DNA of 64,000 bases from positions 68,513 to 132,512 of the forward strand of contig JASNYX010000002.1 in the NCBI GenBank assembly GCA_048499955.1. The letters run 5' to 3'. The translations under genes were made by a program, and so were the position numbers. This document shows positions 21,949 through 54,730 of this stretch, piece after piece. Numbering within the stretch: position 1 is the first letter of the stretch; each line of letters opens with the position of its first letter. Origin of the DNA: Patescibacteria group bacterium (GTDB taxonomy: Bacteria > Patescibacteriota > WWE3 > 2-01-FULL-39-13). The notes beneath the pieces are model-generated. The model did not search any database and was not told the DNA's origin. It saw only the letters and a list, made by a program, of their open reading frames with translations.

Positions 21949-22884
21949 TTATAATACCAACCCAACATTTGTATACCAAATACCCAAAATTGCAAACACT
22001 AGAAGCAAAACGTGCAATGCGGTATGACCGGAAACTCTAAAAACTCCGGACACTTTGGCATAATACCCATCAATTAAGAATAATCCGGTTAAAAACAAAC
22101 CTAATATCAAAGCAATATATCTTGATGCACTAAAAACATCTGAGCTATTTAATACACTACCTTGATCAGTGATAAAAGATTGAGTGGGAAGATCTTCCGC
22201 TATATTAATTTGATCCAAAATTACAGTTTCTACAGGAACTTCCTCAGGCTGCGATAAATACGATTCTTCAACAACGACGTCATCAGTAATCTTAGAAATC
22301 TCAGGTACTCCGGAGTTTTCGATTATAGGAACATTTTTCGGTTGACCAAACATCTGCACAACCAACGTGGTTTTTCGTCCATGAAGCTCCCCGTTAACAA
22401 TAGCAAATCCGACTTCCGTGTAGTTCTGACTAAGTAGATTGGATTTATGTGAGGGCGAATTATACCAAGCATTAACTACACTTTTGGAATTAGCGAAATC
22501 AACTGCTAAGTTTTCCCCTGCAAACGTATATTGGTATCCGGCCGAACGTATAAAATCCCAAGGCTCTTTGCCTGAGGGAGAAGTATGTGCCCAATAATCA
22601 TGTGTAAACATATCTTCTGCTTTCTTTTGTGCAGCTGTATTAAGCTTGGAACTTATTTTCAAATCTGTGAGTCCAGCATCCTTTCGTCTTTCATTCGTAT
22701 GCTTCAACAAGTCTCCCTGACTAATATTAGTAGCAAATCCAAGAATATTGGTGAGTGGATATGTTAGAACCGAAGTAGACAGAATAAAAAGCATTAAGAA
22801 TACGCTGTACCCTAATAGAGAATGTGATCTTAGTAATACTGATCTTTTCTTATCTTCTTTTGCAGGAATAAGTAGATATATCAT
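21949..22884 (-). CDS. CAP/SCP/PR-1 domain protein (YkwD-like), membrane anchored
   Basis: CAP signature HYTQVVW-like block (YTEVGFAIVNG...) plus HDYWAHTSPSG...AGENLAV. Has an N-terminal TM and a C-terminal TM. Confidence 0.6.
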   Translation of the reverse strand: MIYLLIPAKEDKKRSVLLRSHSLLGYSVFLMLFILSTSVLTYPLTNILGFATNISQGDLLKHTNERRKDAGLTDLKISSKLNTAAQKKAEDMFTHDYWAHTSPSGKEPWDFIRSAGYQYTFAGENLAVDFANSKSVVNAWYNSPSHKSNLLSQNYTEVGFAIVNGELHGRKTTLVVQMFGQPKNVPIIENSGVPEISKITDDVVVEESYLSQPEEVPVETVILDQINIAEDLPTQSFITDQGSVLNSSDVFSASRYIALILGLFLTGLFLIDGYYAKVSGVFRVSGHTALHVLLLVFAILGIWYTNVGLVL

Positions 22885-22893
22885 TACAGGGAA

Positions 22894-23244
22894 TTAGTTA
22901 CGGAATTTAGGCTGTTGCAATAATCTCCTAAAAGCAAGTTCCTCTAGACGTCCTCGGGTTTCCGCCTCATTTTCACTATCTTTAGCTTTTTTTAACATTA
23001 AATCAGCCTTGGGCCACGCAATAATCCAAAAAAGCAGGATAAATCCGACACCAAATGCCACAATGAATATTTTAAAAAGTTCCCAAAGACTTGGCTCTTT
23101 GCTAATCAAAAAAACTAGTAACGCTACGGTGAATAACAAGATTGAAGTTATCAGGTTTCTAATTTCTATACTGACAAAAGTAAATCCTGATATCCGAATA
23201 TGTAGAAGAACAAAAATGTTTTCAAGTGATCGAAACGTACTCAT
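22894..23244 (-). CDS. Small membrane protein (hypothetical)
   Basis: 116 aa with two TM helices and a charged C-terminal tail. Confidence 0.35.
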   Translation of the reverse strand: MSTFRSLENIFVLLHIRISGFTFVSIEIRNLITSILLFTVALLVFLISKEPSLWELFKIFIVAFGVGFILLFWIIAWPKADLMLKKAKDSENEAETRGRLEELAFRRLLQQPKFRN

Positions 23245-23304: not shown

Positions 23305-24603
23305 TTATTTCAGATGCCAATAAAGAGACATTTTATCGTCATCATGAAAAATGAAAACTCCGTTACCCCCATCCCCTAAGCAATTTCGACAAAAATAGGC
23401 TTCACCGTCAGCAATTGACCTAATTGAAATATTACCAATGCCCACCATATCAAGGGCAGGGTGAGGTTTACCTCCGTACATCCAGTTATAGCAGGTGTTA
23501 CTGCCAAAGTTTTGAGTGATTCGCGGGCTCGACATGGGCCAACTATACTTCCCTTTTCCGGATGTTTGGGTTCCTTTTGGATCACGGCTACAACCCGTGT
23601 CCCATACTATGCTTTTAGATTTTAGATATTTAAGTGGATCAAGGTAATTACTGTGATACCAACCCCAACTGGATTTCTTTTCAAAGTCTTCCCGACTGTA
23701 AGAATAAATGGAAAAATGAAGGTGGGCACCGGTTGAAAAACCTGAGTTGCCCATAGTGCCGACAATCTCGCCTTCTTCGACCTCAACGCCTTTACCTTCC
23801 CTAACAACAATATTTGCTGCACTTTGAATTTGTGAAAGCTCTTTTTTCGCTGACTCCAAAAGATCCTGATATCTTTTCTCATCATTTTTTGTAACTCTGA
23901 GCAGATCATCCTTAGAAGATTTTTGGTGTGCCAGATTTTCTCTTAGTTCTACTGCCTGAGCCTTTTTAGCCTCAATGCTTTTCTTTAATATTTCCACTTC
24001 CTGTTTTTTATCCTCAAGCAAATCCTGCTGGCTCTCATAGTTATCTTTAGTAACGTTCATCTTGGCAATGATTTCCTTATCTTCTGCCTGTACCCGTTTA
24101 AGGTAAGTAATACGTGAAATGAAGTCGCCAATAGTGTCGGTACTCATAAGAACCTCAATAAATGTCTGCTGTCTGTTCTTGTATTCTTTTTTGAGCCTCT
24201 CAGCCAAAAGCTTTTCGTGCGTATCAATAGTTCCATCGAGTCGGGAAAGCCTGATTTCCAACAAACGAATATCTTCTTTAAGTAGGGTCAGTTCCTCTTC
24301 TTTTTGAATTACCTGAAGCTCGGCCTGAGCAATCTGTACTGTCTTCAGATTTATATTATTTTCAATGATATCTATATCTCGTGAAAGGCTGGAAGCTTTA
24401 TTTTTCGCACTATCCAGTTTCGCTTCAAGTTCACGTACTCGTTTTTCCAGGTCTTCAGTCTGGGCTTCCGTTGCCGACAAAACGTCCGTTGCCTCATAAT
24501 TCATCACCAACGGCAATGTCAGAAAAATAAAACCTGCAATACATAGGAACTTAATTATTTTAGTTAGTTTTTTTTTGGAAAAATCAGATTTGGTGATTCT
24601 CAT
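23305..24603 (-). CDS. Coiled-coil M23 (LytM-type) peptidoglycan metalloendopeptidase with a circularly permuted catalytic domain, the EnvC/PcsB-like partner of FtsEX
   Basis: Has a signal anchor and a coiled coil of about 220 aa. The catalytic HxH block (GNSGFSTGAHLHFSIY) comes before the HxxxD block (HPALDMV...GNGVFIFHDD..SLYWHLK-stop). That is the reverse of the canonical M23 order. Confidence 0.75.
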   Translation of the reverse strand: MRITKSDFSKKKLTKIIKFLCIAGFIFLTLPLVMNYEATDVLSATEAQTEDLEKRVRELEAKLDSAKNKASSLSRDIDIIENNINLKTVQIAQAELQVIQKEEELTLLKEDIRLLEIRLSRLDGTIDTHEKLLAERLKKEYKNRQQTFIEVLMSTDTIGDFISRITYLKRVQAEDKEIIAKMNVTKDNYESQQDLLEDKKQEVEILKKSIEAKKAQAVELRENLAHQKSSKDDLLRVTKNDEKRYQDLLESAKKELSQIQSAANIVVREGKGVEVEEGEIVGTMGNSGFSTGAHLHFSIYSYSREDFEKKSSWGWYHSNYLDPLKYLKSKSIVWDTGCSRDPKGTQTSGKGKYSWPMSSPRITQNFGSNTCYNWMYGGKPHPALDMVGIGNISIRSIADGEAYFCRNCLGDGGNGVFIFHDDDKMSLYWHLK

Positions 24604-24626: not shown

Positions 24627-25508
24627 CTAGTAGTCGATGTATCTGCGGGTAGCAAAGTAACTACTTACAAAGGCAAGGAATCCCGCAAAAATAAATTGAA
24701 CCAACATACCACTTAAGATAACTTCCGGACTCATTCTAAAAATCGAGTCATCTCTACTGACTAACTTCATAACATCATTATATTTAAAAAACAAGACAGC
24801 ACCCCAAATCAACGATGAAATCGCCACAGAGGCAAAAGCCATTATAAAGCTTTGCATAATATACGGGGCTTGAACATACCAATTATTGGCACCAACTAAT
24901 TTCATAATAATTATTTCGGACTTGTGTGCATAAATTGTCATACCTATCGCCAAAGTCATTACCAACATGGTTGATATAGAGAATATTACAAGCAGCACAA
25001 TACTAATAACCTGTATTCCAAATACCACCTTACTTAGTACATCTAGAGATTCCCGAGGATCATGAACTTCGTCAATTGCCGCACTTCTCGACTTCAACGC
25101 TTCAACAACCATAGGAACCTCACCCAATGAGTCCGCTTTGATATTTAAATGCGCAGGAAACGGATTAGATGTAACAGAAGCCGTTATATCTTCCCTATCC
25201 CTATTGTCTTCCAGAAATGACCTCATAGCTTCCTCTTTGGAAATATAGCGGATTTCATGGACAAACTCCTCTGCTTCAAGCTCTCTTTTTATTTGTAAAA
25301 TTTGGGCTTCATCAACTTCATCTTTGAAAAACCCTATAACCTCAGGTTTTTGAACAAGGAATTTCACAACATTATGAGAAGTAAAAATGACCGTAAGCAA
25401 CATACCTAACGCAACAAAAGTTATTACCATCATAAAAATAATAGCGTAACTTCGCCATCCGCTTCTTTTTATATTCGTAAAAGTTCTGGACCAGAGTGAA
25501 TTACTCAT
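24627..25508 (-). CDS. ftsX: Cell-division ABC transporter permease FtsX
   Basis: Four-TM topology with a large first periplasmic loop. It directly follows ftsE. Start trimmed to the internal Met (MSNSLW) to give the usual short ftsE/ftsX overlap. Confidence 0.75.
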   Translation of the reverse strand: MSNSLWSRTFTNIKRSGWRSYAIIFMMVITFVALGMLLTVIFTSHNVVKFLVQKPEVIGFFKDEVDEAQILQIKRELEAEEFVHEIRYISKEEAMRSFLEDNRDREDITASVTSNPFPAHLNIKADSLGEVPMVVEALKSRSAAIDEVHDPRESLDVLSKVVFGIQVISIVLLVIFSISTMLVMTLAIGMTIYAHKSEIIIMKLVGANNWYVQAPYIMQSFIMAFASVAISSLIWGAVLFFKYNDVMKLVSRDDSIFRMSPEVILSGMLVQFIFAGFLAFVSSYFATRRYIDY

Positions 25509-26187
25509 ATCGACCTCCTTGAACATCATGAATCACTTTTCCTTTTTCAATATGTATAACTCTTTTTTTTAGTGTGTTAACGATCTCCGTGTCATGTGTG
25601 CCGAATATAATTGTGGTTCCCCAATCATTAATTTTCTTTATTAAGTCAACGACAACCCAGGTCGAGGCTCGATCAAGGTTTCCTGTAGGCTCATCGGCTA
25701 AGAGAATTTTGGGCTCATGTGCCAATGCTCTTGCTAAAGCCAAACGTTGTTTTTCCCCACCAGATAAAGCACCCGGAAATTTATTTTCCTTTCCACCCAA
25801 ACCAACCATTTGAAGCAAATTCGTGACAACAGCATTAACATGGTCTTGCGGCTTTCCTACGACATAGAGGGATAATGCAACATTTTCAAATACATTATTT
25901 GAATCCAATAGTCTAAAATCCTGATAAATAAATCCGACCTTACGTCTTAAATTGGGAAGATTTCGCTTCTTTAAGTTAACGACATTATCACCATCGACAA
26001 TAACATCACCGGTTGTCGGAAGCTCTTCTCTAACTATATGTTTCATAAGAGTGGTTTTCCCGGCTCCGGAAGTTCCAATTAGAAATATAAACTCTCCGGG
26101 TTCGATGACCAGATTAATATCCTCTAGTCCTTTGGTACCATCAGGATAATCCTTATTGAGATTTCTGAATTCTATTATTGACGACAT
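25501..26187 (-). CDS. ftsE: Cell-division ABC ATPase FtsE
   Basis: Walker A GTSGAGKTT, ABC signature LSGGEKQRLALARAL and Walker B ILLADEPTGNLD. 228 aa. Confidence 0.85.
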   Translation of the reverse strand: MSSIIEFRNLNKDYPDGTKGLEDINLVIEPGEFIFLIGTSGAGKTTLMKHIVREELPTTGDVIVDGDNVVNLKKRNLPNLRRKVGFIYQDFRLLDSNNVFENVALSLYVVGKPQDHVNAVVTNLLQMVGLGGKENKFPGALSGGEKQRLALARALAHEPKILLADEPTGNLDRASTWVVVDLIKKINDWGTTIIFGTHDTEIVNTLKKRVIHIEKGKVIHDVQGGRYE

Positions 26188-26248: not shown

Positions 26249-26791
26249 TCACTTTAATTTTACAGACTTAACATGAATTACATCAAGACCATTATATTTA
26301 CCTCGTATATCACCATATATTTCTACCATATATCCTTGAGACAAACTCAAATCATTCTGCTCCGCATATAAGTAAGCCACAGCCTGATTATTCCTGTCTA
26401 ATAATTTAAACTTATACTCTTCCATGTCCGCCAATCCATTTGATATTATTTTTCCGCTGAAATTATTTGATAATGTCTGCTCATCAGGTAAGTATATTAC
26501 CCCTTGGTATGTGTCTGAAGTAGGTAAAATCTCAACTTCTTCAATAGTTGGGGATCGATACGAAAGGATAAAAATAACGGAGGCAATCAAGAAAATTATT
26601 AATGCTACGATGTAAATTCTGGATCTAACCTTGCCGATGTCGACTGTCGAATCCTGATTGGGATCAAAAGGAACGTCCATTTCCAGGAGCTTTCCGGTGT
26701 TAGCAAGTGATTCTAATTTCTGTTCGCTACTAAGTTTATTAAGGGATGTTTCCGCATTCTCTGCGGAATTTATATTTTTGCTATTGGGCAT
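26249..26791 (-). CDS. Hypothetical single-pass membrane protein
   Basis: 180 aa with one TM helix after a ~60 aa polar N-terminus. No recognised motif. Confidence 0.35.
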   Translation of the reverse strand: MPNSKNINSAENAETSLNKLSSEQKLESLANTGKLLEMDVPFDPNQDSTVDIGKVRSRIYIVALIIFLIASVIFILSYRSPTIEEVEILPTSDTYQGVIYLPDEQTLSNNFSGKIISNGLADMEEYKFKLLDRNNQAVAYLYAEQNDLSLSQGYMVEIYGDIRGKYNGLDVIHVKSVKLK

Positions 26792-27908: not shown

Positions 27909-30440
27909 TTATTCTAAAGTATCGAGCTGATAAGAGTCTCCGGGCTTAATTTCACCGGAAATGATTAAATTTGCAATCCGAGTTTCAAGATCTTGTTCTA
28001 TCACTCTATTTAACGGCCTAGCTCCCCATTCTCTTGAATAGCCTTTTGCAGCAATTTCTTTAATTAGGTTTTTGCTGAACATAAGATTAATATGTTTTTC
28101 CTTTAGTCTCTGTGCCACTAAATTAACTTTGATATGTGCAATCAGCTCCATTTGTTCCGGAGTTAACGGATAAAATGGTATTAATGCCGAAAACCTGTTT
28201 AAAAACTCGGGAGGATAAAACTCTTTCAAAGACTCAAGTCCAATTGCAATTGCTTGTTCGGGAGTAGCTCCTTGATCTAATGATTTAACCATTTCCATGG
28301 TTCCTGCATTTGAAGTCATAATTATAAGATTATTTTCAAAATTCACCGTATACCCTGTAGCATCTGTAAGACGGCCATCATCCAAGACCTGCAAAAACAG
28401 GTTGAAAATATTACGATCGGCTTTTTCAATCTCGTCTAATAGTATCAAGCTATACGGATGAGTCTTAACCTGAGAAGTGAAAGTTCCGACACTATTTCCT
28501 CCTGCTCCAATCAAGCGGTTGATACTATCTTGCGTTTGAAACTCACTCATATCAACTCGAACCATGTACTCTGCAGATCCAAAATAAAGGTCGGCCAATG
28601 CCTTTGCGGTTTCAGTTTTCCCAACTCCGGTCGGGCCAAAAAATAAGAAGCTGGCAATAGGTTTACCCTCAGCCCTGACACCAACACGAGCACGCTTTAA
28701 GGCATTTGAAATTTGCGTTACGGCCATATCCTGTCCGATCACTCTTAAATGCAGATTCTCCTCAAGCTGCATAAGCTTGTCCTTTTCATCTTCAGTTATA
28801 GATTTTGCAGGAACCTTTAGTGCAACCGAAATTGCTTCTGCTACCGTGTTTTTATCAAGCACTCTTGTCGAGGGGCTTAAAGAGCTTAAAGCATTCATTA
28901 ATAGCTGAATACCTTTGTCGGGAAACGCACGATCATATATATATCTTTTCGCTAGATCATAAGTTAAATCTAATGAAGGGTAACTTACAATCAATCCTTT
29001 GGATTCCATACCTCTTACCAAATGAACCATCATCTCAATAGTTTCAGACTTGGTAGATTCACGCATTTCAACAATATCAAACGAATTTGCAAATGACTGG
29101 TCTGTCGCAATATATTTTTCGTATTCCTGTCTGGAAGTAGTACCGATAAACTGGAACTTACCTGAAGATAAACTATTATTCAAAGCTTCCATAATAATTG
29201 AACCGCTTTTATCGACGTTCAATAGGTTATGTATATCATCAATAAATAAAATGATATTTCCTGAGGCGGAGATCTCTCTTAACAGTAAGCTCATCCTCCG
29301 AGCAGTTTCTGCAGTACCTCCTGAAATTATTTCTGCTACATTCAAAGAAATAATTCTTTTATACTGCAAGGCAGGAAGTGAAGTACCAAGTGCAATCTCG
29401 CGTGCAAGACCTTTTACAAAAGTTGTTTTACCTGTACCGGATCTCCCTACTAGCATAACGTTGTTCTTGCTCCCTTTGCTTAACACACGAACAACCTGAG
29501 TCTTCACATCATCTCTCCCGATTAATTTAGGCATATACCCTTTTAATGCCGCTTTAGTATAGTCTTCCCCATATCTATTTAAATTTGCTGTATAAGATAC
29601 TGCCCAGCCTTTATCAATTCCGCCTGAGGGCGGTATCTGGAAATCTTTATCCCAAATTTGAGGATGACGATTTTTCAAAACTCGGACCTGATTAACTGCA
29701 CCGATTACCTGTTCCGTAGTTGAGGAGTATTTACCTAAAAATGGCTCATGTTTTTCTACTGCAAGTATTAACGATGCAAGTATAAGTTCATGTGAAACTA
29801 ACTTTAGTTTTACTTCATTATTAATTTCCAACATCGACGCGGAAAAAATCTGGTTATCCATTTTACCTGCACTTGAATACAAATGATTCAAAATTTGTTC
29901 AGCCGGTAGTTCAAGCCTTAAGAAGAAATTTACGGTTTCATGTTTTTTGGACAAACTTACAACCAAATCCGTGAATTTGCTCTCAAAAGCCAAGCTAAGT
30001 AGCATCCGCATATAGATATCCCCGGCAAGATGATACTGAGACAAATCTAAATAATTATCGATAAGTGAAATAGGATGATAATAGTAGCTGTAAACTTTTA
30101 GCAGAACAATTACGAGTATGATTAGTGCGGCATATGCAAAATATCCTTTAAATATCAGGATTGCAGGCAAAGCAAATACACCAATAAACCCTAACAATAA
30201 AGCAACGGATGCAAGTACAAGTACAACAATAGAAAGTGTAATCGTTAATGTTCGTATCACGACCCCGTTGATCCTGGAAAATACACCCGGGAAACCGAAT
30301 AACGGTTTAAAGAAACTTCTAACCATCACTGATAAACCGAAGTTTTGGCTCAAGAGCACTAACGATCTATATATAACCGTTGCTAAATCCCTGGGGAATT
30401 CGTATGTAAAAAATTTGACCAGATATGTTCCGAGATCCAT
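27909..30440 (-). CDS. Clp/Hsp100-family double AAA+ ATPase (ClpC/ClpB-like) with an N-terminal polytopic membrane domain
   Basis: The N-terminal ~230 aa have 3-4 TM helices. The D1 module has Walker [10 protein letters not shown] and an atypical Walker B ILFIDDIH (DD instead of DE). The D2 module has Walker [10 protein letters not shown], Walker [11 protein letters not shown], a sensor region and a C-terminal small domain ([11 protein letters not shown]). Confidence 0.75.
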
Positions 30441-54655: not shown

Positions 54656-54730
54656 GGCCCCTTCGTCTATCGATTAGGACACCAGGTTCTCATCCTGGAA
54701 AGATGGGTTTGATTCCCATAGGGGTCACCA
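54656..54730 (+). tRNA. tRNA-Glu(CUC)-like gene, 75 nt, with non-canonical D- and T-loops, overlapping the 3' end of the recombinase gene; probable integration target/attL
   Basis: Hand-folded. Acceptor stem GGCCCCU/AGGGGUC, D-stem GUCU/GGAC, anticodon stem CCAGG/CCUGG with loop UUCUCAU (anticodon CUC), T-stem AUGGG/CCCAU, discriminator A, encoded CCA. The 5' half is near-identical to E. coli tRNA-Glu (GUCCCCUUCGUCUA...AGGACACC). G18G19 and C56 are absent. Confidence 0.5.

Follow-up and report, generated by a model that had tools for sequence, protein, structure and literature searches.

The M23 or LytM peptidases, which include lysostaphin, LytM and ShyA and the activators EnvC and NlpD, are among the most studied of the cell wall hydrolases, and they are regarded as one uninterrupted domain in which the sequence motifs follow a fixed order. 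Can that order be rearranged in a natural protein? The question is raised by a gene at positions 23305-24603, on the reverse strand, of a stretch of 64,000 nucleotides from a Patescibacteria group bacterium of the WWE3 lineage (contig JASNYX010000002.1, positions 68,513 to 132,512); we refer to the whole of this stretch as the window. The gene encodes a coiled-coil peptidase of 432 amino acids (aa) that lies directly after ftsE and ftsX, and a preliminary description had proposed that its M23 domain is circularly permuted. We have examined this proposal by sequence comparison, structure prediction and analysis of gene order. Judged from its sequence and setting, the gene product is probably an extracytoplasmic, membrane-tethered peptidoglycan metallo-endopeptidase with a truly permuted M23 domain, and a partner of FtsEX in the Candidate Phyla Radiation (CPR)/Patescibacteria (WWE3-like).

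The Halves of the M23 Domain Are Found in Exchanged Order

The open reading frame (ORF) is translated toward lower coordinates, with its stop codon at 23305-23307, and all the parts described here lie on the reverse strand. Residues 15-35 (KIIKFLCIAGFIFLTLPLVMN; 24499-24561) form a hydrophobic segment near the N terminus that AlphaFold models as helical, and they are read as a putative signal sequence or membrane anchor, with the remainder of the protein being extracytoplasmic. A coiled-coil region of ~220 residues follows (residues 40-261; 23821-24486). The catalytic domain begins with what would be the C-terminal half of a canonical M23 domain (residues 262-327; 23623-23820). This carries the HxH motif as GxxGxSTGAH294LH296F, with codons for H294 at 23722-23724 and H296 at 23716-23718, and it finishes with the sequence DPLKYL that forms the C terminus of canonical relatives. 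A linker running from the old C terminus to the old N terminus (residues 328-352; 23548-23622) contains an invariant cysteine, C338, and is modeled by AlphaFold as a β-hairpin. The canonical N-terminal half is placed last (residues 353-432; 23308-23547), with the motifs WPM..RITQNFG, H381PALD385 (HxxxD), a CRNC insert, FIFH420 and YWH430LK, whereupon the protein stops. The order of the motifs is thus HxH, HxxxD and YxH followed by the terminus, and the contiguous canonical order HxxxD, YxH, HxH is not present. In canonical-order proteins the median spacing from HxxxD to HxH is 80 residues (n = 113), in agreement with the value of about 80 given in the preliminary description.

The exchange of the halves was seen in several sequence comparisons. 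The Pfam Peptidase_M23 profile (PF01551) matched the protein with 45.8 bits, compared with a gathering threshold of 28.7, and the match was split into two stretches, the better of which aligned residues 261-302 with positions 51-90 of the 96 in the profile. A phmmer search of the sequences in the Protein Data Bank (PDB) aligned residues 16-93 of the DipM chain (7qrl) with residues 347-431 of the query, and residues 103-128 with residues 274-299, i.e., in reversed order. We also built a profile from 22 domains of the family and searched the PDB with it. This matched 16 solved M23 chains, and in the alignment with TagE (5j1l_A) residues 38-116 of the chain correspond to profile positions 100-177, and residues 118-184 to positions 10-81. 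The cut in this alignment falls directly after the YxHL strand, with zero residues missing. The residues of the active site are placed consistently by these alignments. H381 and D385 align with the HxxxD that provides the first histidine and the aspartate zinc ligands of DipM, TagE and other solved M23 chains, STGAH294LH296F aligns with the HLHF that provides a catalytic histidine and the third zinc ligand, and YWH430L aligns with the strand of the second catalytic histidine, which reads YAHL or YGHV in DipM and 9gy1.

Comparison with a canonical-order relative that also contains a coiled coil (P0167, 416 aa) led to the same result. In the first BLASTP alignment residues 12-432 of the query match residues 4-353 of P0167, with query residues 262-350 looped out. 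A second alignment pairs query residues 271-327 with residues 360-416 of P0167, extending up to the DPLKYL at the C terminus of that protein (query residues 322-327). We then constructed an artificial sequence in which residues 350-432 were pasted ahead of residues 261-331. Pfam M23 matched the re-ordered sequence in a single stretch over profile positions 2-90 of 96, with a score of 58.4 bits, compared with two stretches and 47.8 bits for the native order. The behavior of the Pfam profile is therefore that expected of a split and reordered domain, which the preliminary description had suggested as a check.

The protein stops two residues past the catalytic His430, at the point where canonical relatives run on into the block that opens the domain here, as the preliminary description had stated; the alignments with TagE and P0167 agree on this point. 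These alignments make the protein a homologue of the M23 family and, in topology, a genuine circular permutant of it, with exact breakpoints. No family model in NCBIfam reaches its cut-off for this protein, and there is weak similarity to the models for DipM, NlpD and EnvC, with the EnvC model giving 17.6 bits compared with its cut-off of 270.

The Permuted Order Is Conserved in a Large Family

A word-indexed search found 397 homologues. In all of the best 120 of these (41-67% identity, ~410-440 aa) the HxH block lies ~90 residues ahead of HxxxD, and all terminate in YWHL plus one residue. An alignment of 71 homologues, covering the same range of 41-67% identity, shows that H294, H296, H381, D385 and H430 are invariant, as is H420. 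Both halves of the domain are thus conserved, with no sign of decay.

We also performed an exhaustive HMMER scan with the domain alone, against 1.84 billion representatives at E ≤ 0.001, which gave 1967 matches. Of the representatives at 50% identity, the best 150 include 74 that are permuted and terminate at the YxH strand. Across the permuted family the spacing from HxH to HxxxD, including the linker, varies from 48 to 96 residues. Sixteen very divergent members, with 24-42% identity to one another's reference, still have all five catalytic residues and end at the same place, and a profile made from them separates permuted sequences (at least 239 bits) cleanly from those of canonical order (at most 203 bits). 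The survey of orthologues yielded 253 permuted sequences in total, and 235 of these (93%) end exactly two residues after the catalytic histidine. Where the source is named it is candidate division WWE3 or "Patescibacteria group." An identical protein is present in an independent Logan assembly. The names given to the homologues in databases vary, including EnvC, CwlO-like and DD-metalloendopeptidase.

One member departs from the common architecture. P0152 (1118 aa) is a large protein that lacks a coiled coil and has a permuted M23 domain, ending in YWHLQ, at its C terminus. Since the permuted domain is borne here by a coiled-coil-free protein, the module is reused in another architecture.

The close family also has conserved cysteines, which in the window lie within 23380-23592. 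These are C338 in the linker, C371, and the pair in the C405-R-N-C408 insert. In the alignment of 71 homologues C338, C405 and C408 never vary, and C371 is conserved to at least 90%. A CxxC sequence follows HxxxD in 135 of the 253 permuted proteins. The four cysteines could pair in two disulfides, or form a Cys4 metal site that staples the linker to the domain. One of the homologues (L018) has a DsbA-like gene nearby.

The Gene Follows ftsE and ftsX

The two genes directly upstream were identified by Pfam, and both are on the reverse strand. ftsE (25501-26187) encodes an ABC ATPase of 228 aa (ABC_tran, 1.8e-33), and overlaps ftsX by 29 nt. ftsX (24627-25529) encodes a protein of 300 aa with extracellular and permease domains (FtsX_ECD, 1.4e-15; FtsX, 4.6e-08). 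The M23 gene begins after a gap of 23 nt. The order prfB, small ORF, ftsE, ftsX, permuted M23 gene is found in 12 of 12 related genome loci for which upstream DNA is available. Permuted genes of three distant subfamilies (P0184, P0309 and P0280; loci L015-L019) are also located directly after ftsE-ftsX. The order ftsE-ftsX-M23, with gaps of ~2-50 nt, is therefore maintained across subfamilies having only ~30-35% identity, and the placement right after ftsE-ftsX claimed for the window is a general property of these loci.

The coiled-coil M23 genes of canonical order are placed differently. In two other CPR genomes (for example, of Paceibacterota; L020:4001-5272 and L021:4001-5290) they adjoin ftsW-murG-gltX, and not ftsEX. 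Because these genes sit elsewhere, linkage to ftsEX is specific to the permuted family. CPR bacteria may have two distinct lineages of coiled-coil M23 proteins with different partners.

The coiled coil itself resembles those of known FtsEX partners. Residues 122-190 match the Pfam family CC_PcsB (1e-08). AlphaFold, using 71 sequences, gave a model of the full protein with a predicted local distance difference test (pLDDT) score of 83.2, and mostly >90 for the β domain, with an N-terminal helix passing through the hydrophobic anchor. The coiled-coil region contains two long helices (residues 73-144 and 158-238) and a final one (242-269) that leads straight into the catalytic domain. On comparing this model with the PDB using Foldseek, the best matches were to EnvC, in the FtsEX-EnvC complex of V. 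cholerae (8tzl_E) and bound to the periplasmic domain of FtsX (6tpi_A), followed by the N-terminal domain of RipA, PcsB (4cgk) and RipC (8idc_E). Coiled-coil matches dominate this comparison, so that it is informative for the resemblance to EnvC, PcsB and RipC only. The long coiled coil of EnvC/PcsB type put forward in the preliminary description is borne out by both analyses.

Could the protein be an active hydrolase that works independently of FtsEX, the adjacency being a conserved gene order without physical coupling? The link to FtsEX is made only through gene order and similarity of the coiled coil, and P0152 shows that the permuted domain can occur without a coiled coil. Against this, the gene order with its short gaps persists among subfamilies that have diverged greatly in sequence, the coiled coil matches the family of FtsX-binding coiled coils typified by PcsB, and the canonical-order genes of other CPR are found at other locations. 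We consider independence from FtsEX to be unlikely.

The Catalytic Residues Are Intact

A second alternative is that the protein functions as a noncatalytic activator like EnvC or DipM, with an M23-like domain serving only to bind a different hydrolase, for instance an amidase, and turn it on. The full-length model has its best structural match in EnvC, some databases give homologues the name EnvC, and the weak similarity in NCBIfam is to the DipM, NlpD and EnvC models. However, the zinc ligands have been lost in EnvC and DipM (PMC11627006), whereas here the three ligands and both catalytic histidines are invariant throughout the family; the degenerate active site of the EnvC type is not found. 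Moreover, there is no amidase gene adjacent in the region of the window examined. A role as activator thus appears quite improbable. The likeness to proteins of EnvC/PcsB type that had been suggested thus calls for a qualification: in function, a protein with its catalytic residues intact would stand nearer to direct hydrolases such as PcsB, RipC and CwlO than to the degenerate activator EnvC. No other M23 gene was found within the 64-kb window.

Predicted Folding of the Permuted Domain

AlphaFold modeling of the domain alone gave a predicted template modeling (pTM) score of 0.85 and a pLDDT of 84.8. Strands are predicted at every position where the aligned canonical M23 domains have them, with an extra hairpin in the linker. 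A Foldseek search of the PDB with this domain model returned no M23 match and nothing significant; Foldseek is a sequential aligner, though a match to a half-domain might have been expected, and this result speaks neither for the fold nor against it.

That failure to recognize the monomeric domain model as M23 might suggest that the two halves fail to come together in a single chain. The active site could then be formed between two protomers in a domain-swapped dimer, or the halves could be separate modules, and an autoinhibited dimer is known for PcsB (PMC11627006). The AlphaFold model of the domain is nevertheless a compact and confident single-chain structure. In the members with the shortest linkers only ~5-9 residues separate the D/NPxxYL motif at the old C terminus from the WP motif that opens the N-terminal half. 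This implies that the old termini lie next to each other in space, which fits intramolecular closure. In addition, the C terminus is fixed two residues after the histidine in 93% of members, as expected for a cut in a surface loop. Taken together, we think it very unlikely that the halves fail to fold together.

An origin of the order by misassembly, frameshift or decay of a pseudogene that juxtaposed M23 fragments can be dismissed as scarcely credible, given the identical protein in the independent assembly, 253 homologues with the same order of which 93% have the same end, and the invariance of the catalytic residues.

The only Foldseek matches that covered the whole of the permuted domain were obtained against the BFVD database (170-183 columns; E = 4e-5 to 3e-2), and these are large phage virion or ejection proteins. 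The entries matched are A0A510E7V3_3, L0CQF1 and H6WFX6. On inspection by eye, the C terminus of gp33 of Synechococcus phage P60 (L023:25177-25779) has an HxH-like sequence, GYGSTGPHLD, ahead of GVDFA...YAFVHG near the stop codon. This protein gave no Pfam M23 match, no match to a hidden Markov model (HMM) of 251 permuted domains, and an insignificant BLASTP comparison. A tblastn search of 50,697 phage records with the permuted domain gave no match. We treat homology between the permuted domain and phage proteins as an unverified lead, supported by neither Pfam nor the family HMM.

Origin of the Permutation

The coiled coil, the sequence ITQxYG...YGGxPHxxLDMV and the terminal DPLKYL are all found in the nearest canonical relatives as well, and it is therefore likely, on the evidence of sequence, that the permuted protein descends from a canonical coiled-coil M23 protein. 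Proteins of the P0167 type are probably the ancestral form. Duplication of a domain in tandem with loss of the outer halves is the classical route to a circular permutation, and a possible path here would be duplication of the M23 domain followed by loss of the first N-terminal half and the last C-terminal half.

In a neighbor-joining tree of re-ordered domains, 83 of 89 permuted sequences fall in one pure clade. The tree requires 3 Fitch changes (bootstrap range 3-12), compared with 44.6 for shuffled labels. The six outliers (P0176, P0189, P0194, P0195, P0228 and P0264) have motifs of more canonical appearance (GYGN..V.DHG, YGHM); they could represent a second independent permutation, or noise in the tree. 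A single origin is likely for the bulk of the permuted family.

Other Features of the Locus

The small ORF between prfB and ftsE (26249-26791, reverse strand, 180 aa) has no Pfam match, and weakly similar ORFs occupy the same place at L001 and L002. An unannotated ORF of ~145 aa lies just ahead of ftsE at L015, L016 and L018. Downstream of the peptidase gene, also on the reverse strand, are a small hydrophobic ORF (22894-23244, 116 aa) without a Pfam match, and a gene for a CAP/SCP-domain protein that carries hydrophobic segments at each end (21949-22884). Both recur downstream of the permuted M23 gene at L001, L003 and L013, and the CAP protein is also found at L002 and L009. Further upstream, a ClpB/ClpC-like protein with two AAA+ domains (27909-30440, reverse strand, 843 aa) has Pfam matches only from residue ~305; its first ~120 residues are strongly hydrophobic, resembling membrane segments rather than the usual Clp N-domain. 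A single tRNA (54656-54727, forward strand) is the only Rfam match at gathering level in the window, and the GC content is ~0.37, rising to ~0.41 past 54 kb.

Discussion

How might a permuted hydrolase be controlled? In known systems the extracellular domains of FtsX are bound by the coiled coil of the partner (EnvC, PcsB or RipC), which relays ATP-driven movements and so frees a catalytic or activator domain from autoinhibition (PMC11627006; PMC7668044; PMC10694151). In the mechanism that we propose for the permuted protein, the two halves would fold back together to give the usual M23 sheet and zinc site, and the coiled coil would bind the extracellular domains of FtsX. ATP-driven movement of FtsEX would then relieve autoinhibition, enabling the enzyme to cut peptide cross-links at the division site. 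It would act directly as a hydrolase, in the manner of PcsB, RipC and CwlO. We favor direct cutting over the activation of an amidase because the zinc ligands, lost from activators of the EnvC type, are invariant in this family.

In the permutant the canonical chain is cut two residues after the catalytic histidine of YxHL, the HxH half is joined to the coiled coil, and a new linker bridges the old termini. Attachment of the coiled coil is shifted to the strand after His430, so that the helix 242-269 would be tethered beside the active site as a candidate gate. With the last helix of the coiled coil leading into the domain next to the strand of His430, the FtsEX signal probably reaches the active site by an altered path. 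Two points weigh against an FtsEX-controlled permuted peptidase as we have described it. The partnership is deduced from gene adjacency, which is indirect evidence, and the pLDDT falls to ~56-60 at the junction of helix and domain (residues 250-270 of the full AlphaFold model), making the regulatory geometry uncertain.

A stronger proposal would be that the permutation is not neutral, but an adaptive rewiring of mechanotransmission by FtsEX. The cut and fusion would place the force-transmitting helix and a free C-terminal carboxylate at the active site, and movement of FtsEX could gate catalysis directly, without a separate restraining arm. The main division hydrolase would then be controlled in this way across the Patescibacteria, with the module perhaps used also in P0152 and phage ejection proteins. 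If true, this would be a solution for bacteria with minimal cell wall toolkits. We regard it as a speculative extension, more probably wrong than right by some way.

The significance of the family does not depend on that extension. A natural permutant indicates that the M23 fold tolerates rethreading, and the existence of a large conserved family with intact catalytic residues strengthens the case; it also offers a ready-made example to engineers of enzybiotics of the lysostaphin type. The permutation explains the weak and split annotation of these proteins, with partial Pfam matches, no NCBIfam family and inconsistent names. The protein is a probable candidate for the FtsEX-controlled division hydrolase of the Patescibacteria/CPR, a vast radiation that is mostly uncultured and in which cell division is poorly understood. 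Compared with EnvC, the coiled coil joins the catalytic domain at another site, which makes the family a natural experiment in the passage of conformational signals from FtsEX to a hydrolase. The observations bear on cell wall hydrolases, on FtsEX signaling and on the evolution of protein folds.

Comparison with Known Systems

Within the limits of the literature searched, we found no description of a permuted M23 or LytM domain, the only precedent being in NlpC/P60 proteins, and a 2024 review of FtsEX makes no mention of permutation (PMC11627006). The departure from known systems is topological; the logic of hydrolase control by FtsEX is known, and the domain is homologous to M23.

Among FtsEX partners, EnvC of E. 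coli and V. cholerae (6TPI, 8TZL) gives the best structural match to the full model, and shares with the permuted protein a signal sequence or anchor, a long antiparallel coiled coil and a C-terminal domain of the M23 family. It differs in that its LytM domain has the canonical order, has lost the zinc ligands, and activates amidases without cutting (PMC11627006), whereas the domain studied here is permuted with its catalytic residues intact. PcsB of S. pneumoniae, RipC of M. tuberculosis and CwlO of B. subtilis are alike in having a coiled-coil adaptor fused to an active hydrolase domain under the control of FtsEX, but for catalysis they use a cysteine peptidase domain (CHAP or NlpC/P60) rather than a zinc-dependent M23 domain.

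Among M23 proteins, those of canonical order with a coiled coil (for example, P0167, P0340 from Paceibacterota and P0361 from Clostridiales) resemble the permuted protein in length, in the coiled coil, and in the ITQxYG...YGGxPHxxLDMV and terminal DPLKYL sequences; they differ in having the N-terminal half followed by the C-terminal half. LytM, lysostaphin, ShyA, TagE and Csd3 have the same set of HxxxD, HxH and YxH motifs, with sequence matches to the solved structures 5j1l, 4rny, 6ue4 and 4qp5, among others, yet all are of canonical order and none has the C-terminal half first. The closest parallel for the rearrangement itself comes from the permuted NlpC/P60 proteins (YaeF/poxvirus G6R, LRAT-like), as described in the summary that PMC6403190 gives of Anantharaman and Aravind (2003). 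These have a different fold and a cysteine mechanism, and are unrelated to M23, but they provide a precedent for a superfamily of cell wall hydrolases in which the catalytic domain is naturally permuted.

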